Source: a candidate division WWE3 bacterium RIFCSPHIGHO2_01_FULL_40_23
GTDB lineage: Bacteria; Patescibacteriota; WWE3; UBA101185; 2-01-FULL-41-18
Direction: 5' to 3'
Length of the DNA: 64,000 nt
NCBI GenBank assembly: GCA_001772615.1
Contig: MEUZ01000003.1
Span: forward strand, 182,422 to 246,421
Made by a program: the position numbers and the translations under genes
Shown here: positions 4,169 through 51,578 of the stretch, one piece after another
How the letters are laid out: every line of letters starts with the position of its first letter
How positions within the stretch are numbered: the stretch's first letter is position 1
Notes under the pieces: model-generated
Told to the model about the DNA's origin: nothing
What the model saw: the letters and a program-made list of their open reading frames with translations, nothing else
The model's database searches: none

Positions 4169-4924
4169 CGCGGTGTTTCAAGCCTGGCGCCTGGATGCAG
4201 TATTAAAGCTATTTCGTTGGGTTTTGAAACGCCCGAAGTTGATGGAATAGAATTTGACGTCCAAAAGACGTCCGATGGAAAACTTGTTGTTCACCATAAC
4301 TTTGCTCTGCGTTTGGGAGAACAAGAGGCATGGTTAAGGGATCTGTCTTTATCTCAAATTAGAAAGCACTTCCCACCTTCACAACTTCCAGAGCTTGAGG
4401 ATGTTTTAATCCTGTTTAAAAACAAAGACAAAATAGCTGATGTTGAAATAAAAGGGTTTGGCATAGCAAAAGAGATAATGGATCTATCCAAAAACTTAGG
4501 AGTTTATAAAAGTTGTGTTTTTACTTCCATCTATGATTCCATCAATGAGGAAATTAAAGAGTATGATCCTAATGCCGCAAGAATTTTCGGCTATCCTCAT
4601 GACAGAGGTAAAAACCTTGCGATGAAAAAATGGGCACAGCCGCTTGTTAAACTAGCCGTTGTATACTTAAGATATAGCCTTCCTCATAAACTTCCACTGA
4701 TCTTAAAGTCTTCCGGCACGCCCTTTATAAGCTTGTATCATAAGCTAATTACTAAAGACGCCGTAAGTTTAATACATAAAGACGGCGGGTACTGCATTGG
4801 AGCCACAATCAACCTGCAAAATGACACTTTAAATAGAGAGTCCCTAAACTCCATGAAACACATGAAAGATTGCGGTGTTGATGTCATCAAAACAGACTAC
4901 CCGCAGTTAATAAGTGGGATCTAA
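4070..4924 (+). CDS. glycerophosphodiester phosphodiesterase family protein (GDPD); start uncertain, a GTG near 4148 is plausible
   Basis: N-terminal CFAHRGVSSLAPG...IEFDVQKTSDGKLVVHHN matches the GDPD HRG/E-D/HHD catalytic signature. Confidence 0.65.
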   Translation: MHKNKYNKTVTKNEFEDFIKQTKAKKGVVCFAHRGVSSLAPGCSIKAISLGFETPEVDGIEFDVQKTSDGKLVVHHNFALRLGEQEAWLRDLSLSQIRKHFPPSQLPELEDVLILFKNKDKIADVEIKGFGIAKEIMDLSKNLGVYKSCVFTSIYDSINEEIKEYDPNAARIFGYPHDRGKNLAMKKWAQPLVKLAVVYLRYSLPHKLPLILKSSGTPFISLYHKLITKDAVSLIHKDGGYCIGATINLQNDTLNRESLNSMKHMKDCGVDVIKTDYPQLISGI

Positions 4925-4948
4925 GTGCAACCATAAACAGCTAAAAAA

Positions 4949-6535
4949 CTACTTTCTCACTAGGTATATTTTGTACCGATCTCTTCGTACAATAGAGTTT
5001 CCAGGCAGATCCACTGCATCATAAACGCTATACGGACTATTAATCTTTATGTATAGATCCGGTTTATGAGTGTTATATGAAATGTCATTACTTCCATACT
5101 TCAAGTAAAAATCAGAGATGCTTGGCTTCTCATTTGTATCATAAGTTTTGATGTCATTTATCAGCTTTAATTTATCAACTTCCGCCCTGATTTCTTTCCA
5201 GCCTCTTTTATACGTAAGCCCAAATACACCTCTTGTCATTTCTTTTCGTGCAACGCCTTCATACATTTTTCCAAAAACGTATGTTTTTTTCTTCCATGGA
5301 TATTCCCGATCTGTATCTATAAACGCAAAATAGTTAAAAGATGCAGATGAGATAATAAGAACACTCAAAACGGATGCAGCAGGAAGCGGAAACTCTCTAA
5401 AAAACTTATAAAACTCGGTTGAAATAATAATAAACAAAGGAATTAAAAAATTATAGATGTGAGTGAGGGGAAATTTAATAAAAACAAAGTAAGTAAAAAA
5501 TGATGTTAAAAGCCATATTTCCATTAAATTCTCCGATTTTAAGCCTTTTAACTTATACAAATCGTATAAGTAAAGAATAATAAATAAGGCCCAGGTAAAA
5601 ACCGAAAGGTTATAAACATAACTTTTATTAACATATGCTCTTGCCACAGTCAGTGCTAAAGCCAACGCAAAAAGTACAGTTCTCTTAACATCCAGTTTTT
5701 TACTAAATGTATTTATCCAAAGTAAAGAACCCATAACCATTATGACCAGAAATTCTTTTGAGTGATACAAAGAAAAGATAGATAAAGAAATAGATAGGGA
5801 ATTTTTGGTGTCACTGAATACTCTTTCAAACAGTAGAAAATTTAAAGTTTTGGAAAAGGCAGGGTGAAGAAAGAAACGAATGTAAAAGAGCATTGAAGTT
5901 ATAAAAACTGTGGAAATGTAAACAAATAAAGATTTTAACTTTCTTGCAATTAAAAGGCTGACAGTAGTTGGGATAATAAACGCAAGAGCATCGTAATGAA
6001 AAAGAAGTGCTGCCCCTGATACAAGACCGTTTAGTATGGGTATCTTTACGCTACTCTTGTTTTCACTTAACTGATTGCAAGTAAGTAGGATAGAAAGGCA
6101 CCCTAAAGCAAGAACAAAAGGCGGAAACTGCAAATACCTTGACATTGCAATAAGAAGTCCTGAAAGAGATATAAAGATCAGGGAAATAAGTGCCGATTTT
6201 TCTCCATAGACTCTTCTTGCCAGTAAGAATGCCACAATAACAAACACAATACCTATTACCGCATATGGAAACCTGTGTATAAGCTCAATATTGTTTAAGT
6301 TATTTACAAAAAAATTTACAAGATAAGTTACAACAAACTGTCCAGGGCCCTTCTTCTGCTCCACTAAAAAGTCAAAAAAGCTTTTTTTAGTAAACAAAAA
6401 CCCGAGGACATCTACTTCATCGCTCACGAATTCAGAATATCCAAGCTTAACAAATCTAAAAAATATGGCCGTCAAGAAGGCTAATCCAAAAAAAAGACCA
6501 TAGAACACTTTGTTCCATTTAATAACAGTTGCCAT
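4949..6535 (-). CDS. polytopic membrane glycosyltransferase of the GT-C fold (ArnT/PMT, GT39/GT83-like)
   Basis: More than 10 predicted TM helices. An acidic DE-containing first loop (FVSDEVDVLGF) follows TM1. A C-terminal soluble domain of about 150 aa is present. Confidence 0.45.
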   Translation of the reverse strand: MATVIKWNKVFYGLFFGLAFLTAIFFRFVKLGYSEFVSDEVDVLGFLFTKKSFFDFLVEQKKGPGQFVVTYLVNFFVNNLNNIELIHRFPYAVIGIVFVIVAFLLARRVYGEKSALISLIFISLSGLLIAMSRYLQFPPFVLALGCLSILLTCNQLSENKSSVKIPILNGLVSGAALLFHYDALAFIIPTTVSLLIARKLKSLFVYISTVFITSMLFYIRFFLHPAFSKTLNFLLFERVFSDTKNSLSISLSIFSLYHSKEFLVIMVMGSLLWINTFSKKLDVKRTVLFALALALTVARAYVNKSYVYNLSVFTWALFIILYLYDLYKLKGLKSENLMEIWLLTSFFTYFVFIKFPLTHIYNFLIPLFIIISTEFYKFFREFPLPAASVLSVLIISSASFNYFAFIDTDREYPWKKKTYVFGKMYEGVARKEMTRGVFGLTYKRGWKEIRAEVDKLKLINDIKTYDTNEKPSISDFYLKYGSNDISYNTHKPDLYIKINSPYSVYDAVDLPGNSIVRRDRYKIYLVRK

Positions 6536-42794: not shown

Positions 42795-43190
42795 TTAATG
42801 ATAGACTACTTCCAGTTTAATTCTATCAGGATCTTCAAAAAAGACGGCGTAATATTTTTTAGTATATTCAGGAAATTTTTTAGGGCTTTGATATAAAGTT
42901 TGAATTTTTTTAACCTTTAAGAACTTATTATAAAAATCATCCACAGCCTTTTTACTGCTTACAAGAAAAGCAATATGGTTAAGACCAACATCCTTTCTGT
43001 GAAAACTCTTTTTCATATATTTTTTGTCTACTAACATAACCCAAAAACTGGATTTCCCGCTATAGTAACCAACACCCCAATCTCCTCCCGCCGCCTTCTT
43101 AAACCCTAAAAATGGGAGAAGATCTTTATAAAATTCAAGAGACTTCTTGGAAGATACGTTTATCTGCAAATGACCTAAAGCTGCCTTCAT
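42795..43190 (-). CDS. VOC/glyoxalase-bleomycin-resistance fold protein
   Basis: LGHLQINVSS...YKDLLPFLGF and a C-terminal VVYH typical of VOC metal ligand positions. Confidence 0.4.
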   Translation of the reverse strand: MKAALGHLQINVSSKKSLEFYKDLLPFLGFKKAAGGDWGVGYYSGKSSFWVMLVDKKYMKKSFHRKDVGLNHIAFLVSSKKAVDDFYNKFLKVKKIQTLYQSPKKFPEYTKKYYAVFFEDPDRIKLEVVYH

Positions 43191-43512
43191 AATTACCCCA
43201 CAAATTTAATAAACTTTACCCATATTAAACCCGAAGAATCAAATTTGCAACATTTAATCTTGATTCAGAAATATCCTGGAGTCGTCTTAAACTCTTCTTG
43301 AAAACTTTCCATAATACGATTACCTAAGGTTACACTCTTCTTTTCCTGAGCGCAAAATGAGTAAAAAGGATAAAATTAGAAATAATGAAAGTAAAGATTG
43401 ATAAAAAGTTGCTTCTTGAAAATTACCAGCATCTGCAGTATTCAATAATATAGACAAACTCATTGATTTAGATTTTGCCTCAATAGCCATATGCTCAAAA
43501 TACAAACCGCCA

Positions 43513-44172
43513 ATGCTTAATCATGCTTTGATACGTAGAAATCTTGAAAACACAGAACTAGATGCAATAGAAAAATTTTTTAAATCCGAAAAAAAGAAAC
43601 CTATACTTTACTTTGAGAACAAACTTGAATTAAAGAAGTTAAAGAAGCTACTAATTGGAAGGGGCTACAAAGAACACTGGGAGGAGTCGTGGATGTTCCA
43701 CACAGGTGAAGGCATGGAAGAGCTTAAAGCTCCCAATATAAGAAAAGTGCGTACAGACAATGAACTCAACACTTTCTTAACTACCTTCAACAATTGTTAC
43801 AGAAAAGGTGACCCCCAAAACCCTTACGGCGAACTCGGGGATCACTTGAACATAGCCCGTGAATCGTGGGAAAGACACCATGAGAATGGGAAAGTGGAAT
43901 ATTTCATAGCCTTTCAGGGAAGTAAACCCGTAGCTGTTACAGCTCTAACCAACTTTTCCGGGATGGGTTACATATCACATGGAGGATCATTACTTGAGGT
44001 AAGGGGAAAAGGGTTTGGAAAGCTGCTCAACTTTTATTGTTTGCACAAATCCCTAAGAAACGGGAATAAATTACATTTTTTGGTAACGTTAAAAGGCCAA
44101 TATGTACAAAAGTTTTGTAATCGCCTCGGTTACACAACAAAACTCACCGCAGTAGGTTTTGTTAAAGAATAG
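43513..44172 (+). CDS. putative GNAT-fold N-acetyltransferase
   Basis: AFQGSKPVAVTAL...RGKGFGKLL resembles GNAT motif A (R/QxxGxG/A). Confidence 0.4.
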   Translation: MLNHALIRRNLENTELDAIEKFFKSEKKKPILYFENKLELKKLKKLLIGRGYKEHWEESWMFHTGEGMEELKAPNIRKVRTDNELNTFLTTFNNCYRKGDPQNPYGELGDHLNIARESWERHHENGKVEYFIAFQGSKPVAVTALTNFSGMGYISHGGSLLEVRGKGFGKLLNFYCLHKSLRNGNKLHFLVTLKGQYVQKFCNRLGYTTKLTAVGFVKE

Positions 44173-44176
44173 CCTA

Positions 44177-44635
44177 TCAAATAATGTTTAGCTTTTCCTT
44201 TATTTTGACGAGGCCCTCGGTTATTAACTTTTCAAGATTATCCATTTTGGCCTCAAGCCTATCCATCCTTTCCTCAAGTCCATCCAGTCTATCCTCAATC
44301 CTACCTACCCTTCCTTCAATCCTGTCAAGCCTCTCTTCAACTTTATCAAATCTCCTATCAATCTCATCAAACTTATCTTCCACATAATCCCTAAACTCAA
44401 TGCTCACATCTATTGAGTCATTTATATTTCTGTTAATCTCAACAACTTCAGCTTCCACTCTTAGAACCCTGTCATTCAGCACGCTAAGTTGATTGTTAAT
44501 TTGTTTAAGTTGTTGAGGGAATAGCTCAACGTTCATTGGTATAATTATATTATTTCGGACTGGGATGTCAATATACTCTAGACGTTTAATTGAAAGCAAA
44601 AATGGCTGTCTAACTGGAATAAGACAGCCATTCAA
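44177..44635 (-). CDS. small coiled-coil protein built from heptad repeats R-[LVM]-[DG]-R-[IL]-E-x
   Basis: Six or more consecutive 7-residue repeats (RLDRIEG RVGRIED RLDGLEE RMDRLEA KMDNLEK ...), matched by a 21-nt DNA periodicity. Confidence 0.45.
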   Translation of the reverse strand: MNGCLIPVRQPFLLSIKRLEYIDIPVRNNIIIPMNVELFPQQLKQINNQLSVLNDRVLRVEAEVVEINRNINDSIDVSIEFRDYVEDKFDEIDRRFDKVEERLDRIEGRVGRIEDRLDGLEERMDRLEAKMDNLEKLITEGLVKIKEKLNII

Positions 44636-44637
44636 AA

Positions 44638-45435
44638 CTACCTTCGCAAAGAAAGAACAACTAACCTCTTACTTTCTATAGCCATCGGTTCTCCGGCAAG
44701 GCTCCCCAGAAAGCTAAGAACTTCAAACCCTGCCTTTTCCAGAAGCTCCTTTAGCTCATGTGGTTGATAAAGTCGAAGTGAGGATGTGACCACCATTTCC
44801 TTCCGGCCTCCCACATACAATGTTTCTGTTGAGATAAGCCTCCCCGTCCAAAAATCGTACACCCTTGGAAACGAAACTTTTCTCACAGATCCATCATTAG
44901 AAACGGTATAACCCGAAGGATTGTAGTTTCTCGCAATGTAATGCGGGCTCATCGTGTCTAAAACGAAGGTCGCTCCCGGCTTAAGAGCTCTTCTTAAACT
45001 TTTTAGAGCAAGGAGGTCATCTCTTTCTGAAAGATAACCAATCCCTGCAGTAAACATGTTTATAGCTCCATCAGCCTTTATTCGAGGCGGAGTCTTTCTA
45101 AAATCCTTGGTAACTATCCGGATTTTGACACCGGCCTCTCTTGCTTCTCTTCCTGCAAGCCGCGTGTGGATAGGGCTAAGATCAAGAAGAGTTACACGGT
45201 AACCCCTCTTTGCTATCGGAATAGCATGGCGACCGTAACCCCCGCACCAATCCAGTATGTGAGAACCTTTAGGAAGTCCCAAAAGTTTCAAGACCCCATC
45301 AACGTCCCTTGCAACACTTAATTCATCATCAACCTTGTCACGATAGGTCTGGACGTAGAAGTCTGTCAGAAACATCTCATTCACCCAGCTTCCACTTCTG
45401 GTCTTCATCTTCATTTCTCCTTCTTCTTGTTTCAT
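44638..45435 (-). CDS. class I SAM-dependent methyltransferase
   Basis: ILDWCGGYGRHAI motif I (xLDxGxGxG) and VTLLDLS motif II. Confidence 0.65.
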   Translation of the reverse strand: MKQEEGEMKMKTRSGSWVNEMFLTDFYVQTYRDKVDDELSVARDVDGVLKLLGLPKGSHILDWCGGYGRHAIPIAKRGYRVTLLDLSPIHTRLAGREAREAGVKIRIVTKDFRKTPPRIKADGAINMFTAGIGYLSERDDLLALKSLRRALKPGATFVLDTMSPHYIARNYNPSGYTVSNDGSVRKVSFPRVYDFWTGRLISTETLYVGGRKEMVVTSSLRLYQPHELKELLEKAGFEVLSFLGSLAGEPMAIESKRLVVLSLRR

Positions 45436-45523
45436 TCCCGGCGCCTAAAAACACATTTGCGTCTTTTGCTCCCGTTTTTGCCGGGTTGGGAAAGCTTCCG
45501 AAAGAAAGCAAATTATTTGGGGG

Positions 45524-45549
45524 AAATAAAAAAGCCTCCCTTCGGAGGC
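45524..45549 (-). terminator. rho-independent terminator on minus strand
   Basis: GCCTCC-gaag-GGAGGC hairpin followed on the minus strand by TTTTTTATTT. Confidence 0.45.
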
Positions 45550-45677
45550 TAATCCAACATTACAAAAATCTTAAGCCTCCGGTAACGCTGATTTCACAGC
45601 GCAATTAACCGCACCCATGTACTTTAGGGTGGGAACCAACTTATTTAACTGAATTAATATACAAGCCCTATCCATAT
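45550..45677 (-). ncRNA. candidate small RNA (or 34-codon micro-ORF) delimited by a consensus-like promoter and a terminator
   Basis: On the minus strand: TTGACT (45709-45714), an 18-nt spacer, then TAATAT (45685-45690). Transcribed region contains hairpins CACCC...GGGTG and CGCTG-tgaaat-CAGCG and ends at the 45524-45549 terminator. Confidence 0.3.
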
Positions 45678-45770
45678 AATTTATATATTAACAAATTCAC
45701 CTTGCTATAGTCAAGAATTGATGTAGACTAAGATTTAGCCTTGGAAGAAAATAAGTTGGAATTGAAGTGC

Positions 45771-45807
45771 AAAAAACCCCGCCTGTTATGCGGGGTCTTT
45801 GCTTGTT
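45771..45807. terminator. bidirectional rho-independent terminator (serves hup on the minus strand)
   Basis: CCCCGC-ctgttat-GCGGGG hairpin flanked by an A-run upstream and a T-rich tract downstream, 45 nt past the hup stop. Confidence 0.55.
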
Positions 45808-45850
45808 CCAACTTTCAAGTTTGTCCCAAAAGAGATTTGCCAGGAGTGAA

Positions 45851-46123
45851 TTACTTAACCGCGTCTTTTAACCCTTTTCCTGCTTTGAAAGCCGGTGTTT
45901 TGCTCGCGGATATTCTTAGAGGAGCTCCGGTTTGAGGATTTCTTCCCATTCTTGCAGCTCTTTGCCTAACCTCAAATGTTCCAAACCCTGTCCATGTAAC
46001 TTTTTCACCCTTTGAAAGGCTCTTTGCAATTCCATCCGAAAGCGAATCCAACGCTCTTTGAGAGTCGGCCTTCGTTAAACCTGCCTTATCGGCTACCATA
46101 TCTATTAAATCAGCTTTTGTCAT
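45851..46123 (-). CDS. hup: DNA-binding protein HU
   Basis: 90 aa. [20 protein letters not shown]...[21 protein letters not shown] matches the HU/IHF arm signature RNPxTG. Confidence 0.85.
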
Positions 46124-51500: not shown

Positions 51501-51578
51501 TCGGGGTGTGGCGCAGTTGGCTAGCGCACCAGTATGGGGTACTGGGGGTCGCAGGTTCGAGTCCTGTCACCCCGACCA
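51501..51578 (+). tRNA. tRNA-Pro (anticodon GGG)
   Basis: Cloverleaf: acceptor CGGGGTG/CACCCCG with the C1:G72 pair typical of bacterial tRNA-Pro. D stem GCGC/GCGC. Anticodon stem CCAGT/ACTGG with loop AUGGGGU. T arm GCAGG-TTCGAGT-CCTGT. Discriminator A. Encoded CCA. Length is off by one nt in my hand parse. Confidence 0.8.

Follow-up and report, generated by a model that had tools for sequence, protein, structure and literature searches.

A probable ribosome-mediated attenuator with a leaderless leader reading frame upstream of an orphan methyltransferase gene in WWE3 and other bacteria of the candidate phyla radiation

In the candidate division WWE3 bacterium RIFCSPHIGHO2_01_FULL_40_23 (Patescibacteriota; GenBank assembly GCA_001772615.1, contig MEUZ01000003.1), a short stretch of DNA between hup and a gene for a methyltransferase (MTase) carries its own predicted promoter, a small open reading frame (ORF) and an intrinsic terminator. 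Is this unit an independently transcribed small RNA (sRNA) or micro-protein gene, as had been proposed from the letters alone (the 'sequence-only reading'), or does it belong to the gene behind it? The window analysed here is the whole stretch of 64,000 nucleotides (nt) around it, positions 182,422 to 246,421 of the contig; the unit occupies window positions 45524-45714, and all of its elements are given in window coordinates and read on the minus strand. We consider that 45524-45714 is probably the promoter and leader of the MTase gene, and that it probably acts as a transcription attenuator of the trp type, mediated by the ribosome and with a leader ORF that is leaderless. The unit would, with the same moderate confidence, be a cis-acting 5' leader of the MTase mRNA and not a free-standing sRNA gene, because it is absent after hup in relatives, is present before the same MTase family elsewhere, has an antiterminator that covaries with its terminator and encodes a peptide that is not conserved. 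The terminated species of ~150 nt would then be the attenuated product of the MTase leader.

The elements of the unit, and the terminator that flanks it upstream, are as follows.

45709..45714, minus strand: −35 hexamer TTGACT (promoter scan)
45685..45693, minus strand: extended −10 element TGT-TAATAT, hexamer at 45690-45685, 18-nt spacer (promoter scan)
45571..45675, minus strand: leader ORF of 34 codons plus UAA (ATG 45675, stop 45573-45571), leaderless or near-leaderless, peptide MDRACILIQLNKLVPTLKYMGAVNCAVKSALPEA (ORF reading)
45612..45631, minus strand: hairpin H1, CACCC-10 nt-GGGTG, within the ORF (folding)
45580..45611, minus strand: hairpin H2, CGGT..GCGCTG-tgaaat-CAGCGT.ACCG, adjoining the antiterminator strand (folding)
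45574..45581, minus strand: antiterminator strand CGGAGGCU, an exact copy of the terminator 3' arm formed by the last ORF codons, with the UAA directly after it (pairing and folding)
45533..45550, minus strand: intrinsic terminator AGCCTCC-GAAG-GGAGGCT, 7-bp GC-rich stem with a GAAG loop (terminator scan and folding)
45524..45532, minus strand: U-tract TTTTTATTT after the terminator (sequence)
45771..45796: hup terminator, CCCCGC-loop-GCGGGG with a U-run, a palindrome that is also called on the plus strand

The promoter described in the sequence-only reading (TTGACT and TAATAT with an 18-nt spacer) is present on the minus strand at 45714-45685, as are the two hairpins and the GC-rich terminator with its U-run at the place where they had been described. 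The promoter matches the consensus at 9/12 positions. Its −10 element is followed after 9 nt by the ATG of the ORF, which leads us to expect a 5' untranslated region (5' UTR) of only 0-3 nt; there is no space for a Shine-Dalgarno (SD) sequence. The terminator stem starts 20 nt beyond the ORF. An earlier remark that the transcript contains CCUCC or GGAGG stretches was right as to their existence, and what they are is more specific: the unit holds one AGCCUCC, which is the terminator 5' arm, and two identical copies of GGAGGCU, and together these constitute an antiterminator/terminator pair. The first copy is the terminator 3' arm. The second, at 45580-45574, lies right before the UAA stop codon, and we assign it as an antiterminator because it is able to pair with the terminator 5' arm.

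Folding of the window transcript is consistent with such a switch. The pairing CGGAGGCU:AGCCUCCG has a predicted energy of -12.4 kcal/mol and is part of the minimum free energy structure when the transcript is folded up to the terminator loop, at which point the 3' arm has not yet been made. For the full-length transcript, the energies of the terminator state and of the enforced antiterminator state are -42.6 and -41.3 kcal/mol, a difference of 1.3 kcal/mol. When the nucleotides that a ribosome at the stop codon would cover are masked, the antiterminator disappears from the fold and the terminator stays. On the strength of these folds, read-through is expected on naked or poorly translated RNA from the window, and termination once a ribosome reaches the stop codon.

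To which neighbour does the unit belong? Proteins identical to the HU and YmdB of the window have been annotated in WWE3 genomes of the Rifle aquifer (GCA_001772695.1). Every contig with an identical HU or MTase protein also has a 100% identical intergenic region and is therefore uninformative for comparison. The nearest WWE3 relatives available were picked through YmdB homologues of 74-78% identity. They retain the order recA-recX-rny-(small ORF)-ymdB-hup together with the hup terminator, which is conserved in sequence at four loci (L038, L039, L041 and L042) whose flanks are not. Neither the unit nor the MTase gene was found downstream of hup in these relatives, where other genes are present instead. 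At L039, for example, hup is followed by genes for a Peptidase_S51 protein and a Cu-oxidase_4 protein and then by a MiaB-like radical-SAM gene (the island occupies L039 positions 4611-6226); in the window the interval from hup to the MiaB-like radical-SAM gene (~43190-45720) contains the leader, the MTase gene and genes for a 152-aa coiled-coil protein, a GNAT protein (on the opposite strand) and a glyoxalase. Judged by this comparison, the stretch between hup and the radical-SAM gene is a variable island.

Searches with the 200-nt unit (nhmmer and blastn) against the MTase-homologue loci and the syntenic WWE3 loci gave no sequence-level match, and homology of the leader was for that reason read from its architecture. 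The nearest MTase homologue (P0002, 55% identity, on a 1.8-kb contig, locus L043) is preceded by a TTGACT-17-TACAAT promoter, an ATG 9 nt further on and a leaderless ORF of 33 codons. Its GGGGGUU-UAA occupies the frame position of GGAGGCU-UAA in the window, its terminator AGCCTCCGAAAGGGGGCTTTTTTATTTC is nearly identical to that of the window, and a TTCTTTCGGAA block stands behind both. The genes beside the MTase vary from locus to locus and often lie on the opposite strand, so that leader and MTase gene form a self-contained module; with different neighbours in every locus, the pair appears to behave as a mobile unit.

The upstream regions of MTase homologues were then read at 24 GTDB species-genome loci and 53 JGI metagenome loci, taken from the MTase-homologue alignment. 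About 24 distinct MTase homologues of the candidate phyla radiation (CPR), with 39-55% identity, share a single leader architecture, headed by a strong promoter, and almost no primary-sequence similarity in the leader itself. The metagenome-assembled genomes that carry them are labelled Microgenomates, Vogelbacteria, Berkelbacteria and Saccharibacteria, and we grouped the leaders by eye into at least nine subfamilies. Where a promoter is recognisable, a TTGAC(A/T/G) −35 element is found in 19/21 related leaders and an ATG lies 6-11 nt past the −10 element in 21/21, again with no room for an SD sequence. In the 24 curated leaders the ORF is 27-49 codons long and its stop codon precedes the terminator stem by 18-39 nt (18-32 nt in 23 of the 24). 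Terminators followed by a U-run are present in all related leaders, and beyond them come 24-141 nt of 5' UTR, a normal SD sequence and the MTase gene. A composite pattern (promoter matching at 9/12 positions or more, an ATG that follows the −10 element by 5-11 nt, ORF of 20-60 codons, terminator 10-40 nt past the stop) occurs once on both strands of the 64-kb window (128 kb of sequence), at this unit, of which the window holds no second copy; in 321 kb of fetched loci, 28 of its 29 occurrences are directly upstream of a homologous MTase gene. The leader is missing at operon-internal MTase homologues (L015, L017 and L024), at homologues with a plain promoter (L021 and L059) and at non-CPR homologues of ≤35% identity (Syntrophomonas, Goldiibacteriota and others).

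The proposal that the unit is an independent sRNA sandwiched between its neighbours does not agree with these observations: it is absent after hup in the closest relatives, it is tied to the MTase family, and its antiterminator covaries. In every leader the strand that pairs best with the terminator 5' arm is located towards the 3' end of the ORF and resembles the terminator 3' arm. This strand changes along with the terminator, from GGAGGCU/AGCCUCC in the window to GGAAGCUGGUU/AACCAGCCUC, GCUAUGAGUUUU/AAAACCCGUAG, UCGCCUAGGCA/..UCGCCUUGGCG and UUCGCCUGGGUGAUU/AUUGCCCCGGCGA in other leaders, and the pairing is specific to a leader's own terminator (0/20000 in an own-versus-other permutation test across subfamilies).

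Inside the ORF of most leaders lies a further strand (segment 1, the anti-antiterminator), which pairs across a central hairpin with the antiterminator strand. It is seen as ACCUCCG/CGGAGGU in L018, as ACCUUCAUG/CAUGGGGGU in L020, as AAACCGGC/GCCGGUUU in L022 and as 12 bp in L051. The permutation test shows this pairing, too, to be own-specific (1/20000, with the antiterminator of L022 assigned by hand), and the P1/H1 domain that it encloses is more structured than its shuffles (mean z = -2.2, and below -2 in 15/24). The central hairpin occupies the same position as H1 of the window and differs in stem sequence between subfamilies (CCGUU/AACGG, GGUUCAC/GUGAACC, GCCC/GGGC and CGUUC/GAACG). It is followed by a U-rich ..GGYUAUUUU sequence, and we infer that hairpin and U-run together serve as a polymerase pause element. 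On these pairings, most leaders show the 1:2 / 2:3 / 3:4 layout of classical attenuators. Hairpin H2 looks specific to the window, the relatives not having been searched for an equivalent.

The micro-ORF of 34 codons without a ribosome-binding site, noted earlier as possibly leaderless, was borne out, and an ORF at the equivalent position is under selection according to the comparative data. A check of ORF against structure in relatives, which had been suggested along with it, gave a divided answer: the frame is kept and the helices covary, and the peptide sequence is not conserved. Between L046 and L047, 7 codons differ, 7 non-synonymously and 0 synonymously, with frame and stop kept. L045 and L077 differ by indels after the antiterminator, yet their stops lie 27 and 26 nt ahead of the terminator. 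A conserved GGUUAUUUCGC encodes GVISP in the frame of L050 and RLFRL in that of L072/L073, and between subfamilies the peptides are unrelated. We also generated dinucleotide shuffles of each leader body and asked how often the first in-frame stop fell 15-35 nt before the terminator. The probability per leader was 0.015-0.10, and 23/24 real leaders have their stop in this interval; the product over nine conservative superfamilies is ~2e-11, for an interval chosen post hoc. The other two frames from the same 5' end are mostly closed within 0-17 codons. The comparison thus indicates that the ORF is conserved as an ORF and is under selection, and we infer that it is translated. Since the frame is conserved and the peptide is not, what is selected would be the act of translation; the lack of peptide conservation argues against a functional micro-protein, a precursor of a ribosomally synthesized and post-translationally modified peptide (RiPP) or a nascent-peptide sensor with a fixed motif.

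These features suggest the following mechanism, in which the position of a ribosome on the leader would decide termination. Because transcription would begin 0-3 nt before the AUG, a 70S ribosome could initiate on the 34-codon ORF without an SD sequence. The last codons of the ORF, CGGAGGCU, would be able to block termination by pairing with the terminator 5' arm AGCCUCCG. A ribosome that reaches the stop codon in step with the polymerase would cover the antiterminator, so that the terminator forms, an RNA of ~150 nt is released and the gene is OFF. If leader translation stalls or lags early, the antiterminator would be free when the terminator 5' arm emerges, resulting in read-through and an MTase gene that is ON. 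The window has no strong anti-antiterminator, and here a leader on which no ribosome initiates would be equivalent to one with a stalled ribosome, with the gene ON. In most relatives the anti-antiterminator would pair with the antiterminator, and untranslated RNA would be terminated as well; read-through would then require a ribosome stalled over the anti-antiterminator, which is the logic of the classical trp operon. Our best guess as to the signal is general translation stress or a translation inhibitor.

Several points weigh against this mechanism. The promoter, the transcription start, translation and termination are all predictions. The window copy is the least canonical of the leaders, with a weak anti-antiterminator (-6.8 kcal/mol, rank 14 of 19), a P1/H1 domain that is not significantly structured (z = -0.8) and the extra hairpin H2. 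Since the ATG lies 6-11 nt past the −10 element, some transcripts may have a 5' UTR of 1-4 nt. The leader peptides show no enrichment or codon runs that would point to a sensed amino acid, so that the regulatory logic by which classical attenuators are defined is absent. Finally, the 15-35 nt interval of the shuffle test was set after the data had been seen, and L018 (39 nt) falls outside it; many of the leaders are related to one another, and their independence was approximated through subfamilies delineated by eye.

Two candidate signals within the ORF were considered and rejected. Valine occurs in every 'stall zone' and is accounted for by the GUU of a hairpin strand. An internal methionine codon is frequent, yet it is out of frame or absent in L014, L019, L064 and L073.

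The alternative that survives best is an attenuator that works independently of translation, in which a small molecule (as in a riboswitch) or an RNA-binding protein stabilises the helix between segment 1 and the antiterminator, and the ORF is incidental or auxiliary. A P1 helix around a hairpin, with a 3' strand shared with the antiterminator, is indeed the layout of an OFF riboswitch. The only conservation that extends across subfamilies is at the RNA level (..GGYUAUUUU after the hairpin and AAUGA before it, read in differing frames), and a metabolite-sensing RNA could plausibly control an MTase gene. None of the 4227 Rfam families, however, matched the window unit or 20 related leaders. Hairpin loops, internal loops and bulges vary in length and sequence between subfamilies, so that a conserved binding core is not visible, and the window copy has no convincing P1. 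Such a switch would also leave unexplained why every leader has an ATG at its 5' end and a frame that ends at a fixed distance from the terminator. We therefore regard it as unlikely.

A search of Rfam had also been proposed in the sequence-only reading, and it returned no family. Scans with Rfam 15 covered the whole window at the gathering threshold, 45350-45900 at E<=10 and 20 related loci at gathering; only tRNAs and sub-threshold noise were recovered, with no match at gathering in the unit or in the 20 related leaders. The leader families of Rfam (Trp_leader, Thr_leader, Phe_leader and others) reached at best 13.8-17.8 bits against cutoffs of 41-55. Sub-threshold matches to leader and sRNA families (E 0.6-7.6) fall mostly on the hup terminator, as does a match to the type I toxin-antitoxin family OrzO-P (E 0.19), which we discarded as an identity for the unit. 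The sole hit above gathering across the whole window is a tRNA (60 bits) at 51502-51575 on the plus strand.

Still less probable, in our judgement, is an independent gene, producing either a trans-acting sRNA of ~150 nt or a 34-aa micro-protein that might serve as a toxin, in signalling or as a RiPP-like substrate for the MTase. The unit does have its own promoter and terminator, its ORF is conserved as an ORF, terminated leaders in other bacteria can moonlight as sRNAs, and the MTase has weak matches among RiPP methyltransferases, to cypemycin N-methyltransferase (5e-6) and to daptide_MTase (1.6e-10, well short of the cutoff of that family). The peptide, however, lacks conservation even among close relatives, and the nucleotides that are conserved fall in different frames; the peptide matches no Pfam family, and no gene caller annotates the ORF on 10 contigs. 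In the fetched loci the unit was not found away from the MTase gene, and the covarying antiterminator would have no role in an independent gene. No other RiPP maturation genes lie beside the MTase, whose neighbours vary and whose best relative is the small-molecule enzyme NmbA. The more specific idea of a RiPP precursor with a tailoring MTase was rejected on the same grounds of unconserved peptides and missing partner genes, and on the presence of a terminator between ORF and MTase gene. The alternative that promoter-like hexamers, an ORF and a terminator came together by chance in a functionless AT-rich spacer could appeal to a promoter match of only 9/12, to promoter-like sites that are common around the unit (12 counted versus 5.8 expected) and to whole-unit folding only modestly better than shuffles (z = -1.9 for 162 nt of the window); it is effectively refuted by the uniqueness of the composite pattern in 128 kb and its recurrence, with covariation, before ~24 diverged homologous genes.

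The gene that the proposed attenuator would control, and the remainder of its 5' UTR, have the following features.

44638..45414, minus strand: MTase gene, class I SAM-dependent, NmbA-like (Pfam Methyltransf_25/23)
45417..45422, minus strand: SD sequence AAGGAG of the MTase gene (sequence)
45437..45509, minus strand: 5' UTR after the terminator, with a hairpin GCTTTC-TTTC-GGAAGC (45509-45494) and a long-range stem CCCGGC (45485-45480)/GCCGGG (45442-45437) (folding)

The MTase probably starts at ATG 45414 (258 aa) and not at ATG 45435 of the longest ORF, because the SD sequence AAGGAG (45422-45417) lies just ahead of the former. Annotated starts are inconsistent (window 45403-45435), with lengths of 265, 256, 245 and 267 aa depending on the source. 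The best relative of solved structure is 9RI2 (E 1.8e-35 with the family profile and 3.7e-20, over the full length, with the single sequence), which is NmbA, a bacillithiol N-methyltransferase (PMC12719100). The matches that rank below it are generic small-molecule methyltransferases, and Pfam finds no Erm-type or RrnaAD domain in the MTase. A 152-aa coiled-coil protein is encoded immediately downstream (44177-44635, minus strand). Its start overlaps the stop codon of the MTase gene (MTase end 44638), and it is for that reason probably co-transcribed with the MTase under the same attenuator. It has only sub-threshold matches to coiled-coil families (DUF7310 and XhlA), and it is not adjacent to the MTase gene in the other loci.

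The region between terminator and MTase SD sequence contains a second structured domain, with a conserved UUUCGGAGGUUUUC in L018, L020, L044, L046, L047 and L049. In these six relatives a long-range stem, CYGGCUYR/YRRGYCRG, encloses a hairpin whose stem varies and whose loop, CUGGGAWU, is invariant. The pairing holds in 70/70 cells, with 5 pairs changed on both sides, compared with 24-46% paired when the partner is slid. The window version is divergent and retains only CCCGGC/GCCGGG and ..GGGAAUGAAAC. No Rfam family matches this domain, which could be a further regulatory element such as a ligand- or protein-binding site. At L045 and L077, ~40 nt before the MTase start, a candidate mini-ORF seen by eye stands behind its own AAGGAGG (ATGTGGCCTAATACAG...) and runs out of frame into the MTase start codon, an arrangement that suggests translational coupling with the MTase in this subfamily.

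A few of the related loci are unusual in other respects. L052 has a leader-like unit at ~1494-1640 (promoter, 30-codon ORF and a GCAAGCCTCC...GGAGG terminator) that is 376 nt, not 25-141 nt, upstream of the predicted MTase start. At L023 (81-152), and at L069 with the same sequence, a tRNA gene ends ~10 nt ahead of the −35 element of the leader promoter. The contig of L023 is labelled 'archaeon' and is probably mis-binned, given its bacterial-type promoter and CPR-type leader. L018 is labelled Deltaproteobacteria yet closely resembles the Microgenomates locus L020, and is likewise probably mis-binned.

Compared with the classical trp, his, leu, thr, ilv and phe leaders, the CPR leaders have the same short ORF, intrinsic terminator and antiterminator that shares the terminator 5' arm, and most of the relatives also have the anti-antiterminator overlapped by the ORF, the segments 1:2, 2:3 and 3:4, and a hairpin with U-run as a possible pause element. 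They differ in having no codon run for a cognate amino acid, in regulating a single orphan methyltransferase instead of an amino-acid biosynthesis operon, in a leaderless and longer ORF (27-49 codons), in their CPR hosts and in matching no Rfam family. OFF riboswitches are similar in that the 3' strand of P1 doubles as antiterminator and is followed by an intrinsic terminator and then the gene; the leaders described here lack a conserved ligand core and an Rfam match, and a conserved ORF spans the whole of the 'aptamer'.

Among attenuators that respond to translation inhibitors (ermK, tet(M) of Tn916, vmlR, lmo0919 and bmrCD), an upstream ORF (uORF) is combined with a terminator and antiterminator, and stalling anywhere on the uORF leads to read-through. 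Their peptides are poorly conserved and have no amino-acid codon runs, their uORFs have an SD sequence, and the regulated gene is single and often mobile, in the erm case a methyltransferase. The missing codon run in the CPR leaders is reminiscent of these resistance attenuators; the MTase here, however, is not Erm-like (it has no RrnaAD domain) and is instead an NmbA-like class I enzyme.

Leaderless leader peptides have been described in Streptomyces lividans (trpL, leuL, ilvL and others), where they are followed by hairpins with a U-stretch or Rho-independent terminators (PMC8079986), and leaderless polycysteine small ORFs in mycobacteria act as attenuators through stalled ribosomes (10.1101/834739). 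The CPR leaders resemble these actinobacterial systems in that the transcript opens directly with the ORF and has no SD sequence ahead of it, and in the proposed remodelling of downstream RNA by the position of a stalled ribosome. The actinobacterial peptides, however, are 12-29 aa long, contain the regulatory amino acid, precede genes of amino-acid metabolism and belong to another phylum, and the mycobacterial system acts on translation by sequestering a ribosome-binding site, not through a terminator.

We found no description of this element in the literature on CPR/Patescibacteria with leader peptides, attenuation or riboswitches, and on that basis rate the leader as a variant, in a new setting, of known leader-peptide attenuation, the general mechanism of which is textbook knowledge. 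To our knowledge, almost nothing is known about gene regulation in these bacteria. If the proposed attenuator is real, it would provide comparative evidence for leaderless translation and for transcription-translation coupling in attenuation in the CPR. It would also mark an orphan, widespread and apparently mobile MTase as a tightly and conditionally expressed gene, which is a hint for experiments on its function. The leader family is absent from Rfam 15 and could be added to it. The unit would furthermore be a compact native regulatory cassette of ~190 nt that could become an inducible switch; according to a 2024 review, inducible expression is among the tools that Patescibacteria genetics lacks (PMC11665869).

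Beyond the attenuator itself, we tentatively raise a broader possibility: that the leader is a sensor of ribosome stalling or of transcription-translation uncoupling that is independent of peptide sequence, is shared across CPR/Patescibacteria and induces the orphan NmbA-like MTase under translation stress. The stress could arise from ribosome-targeting compounds of host or neighbour bacteria, and the enzyme could modify such a compound, a ribosomal component or a protective small molecule. Should this stress-sensor proposal be true, these ultrasmall epibionts would have their first inducible stress or resistance module, and attenuation by coupled transcription-translation would be evidenced in them for the first time.

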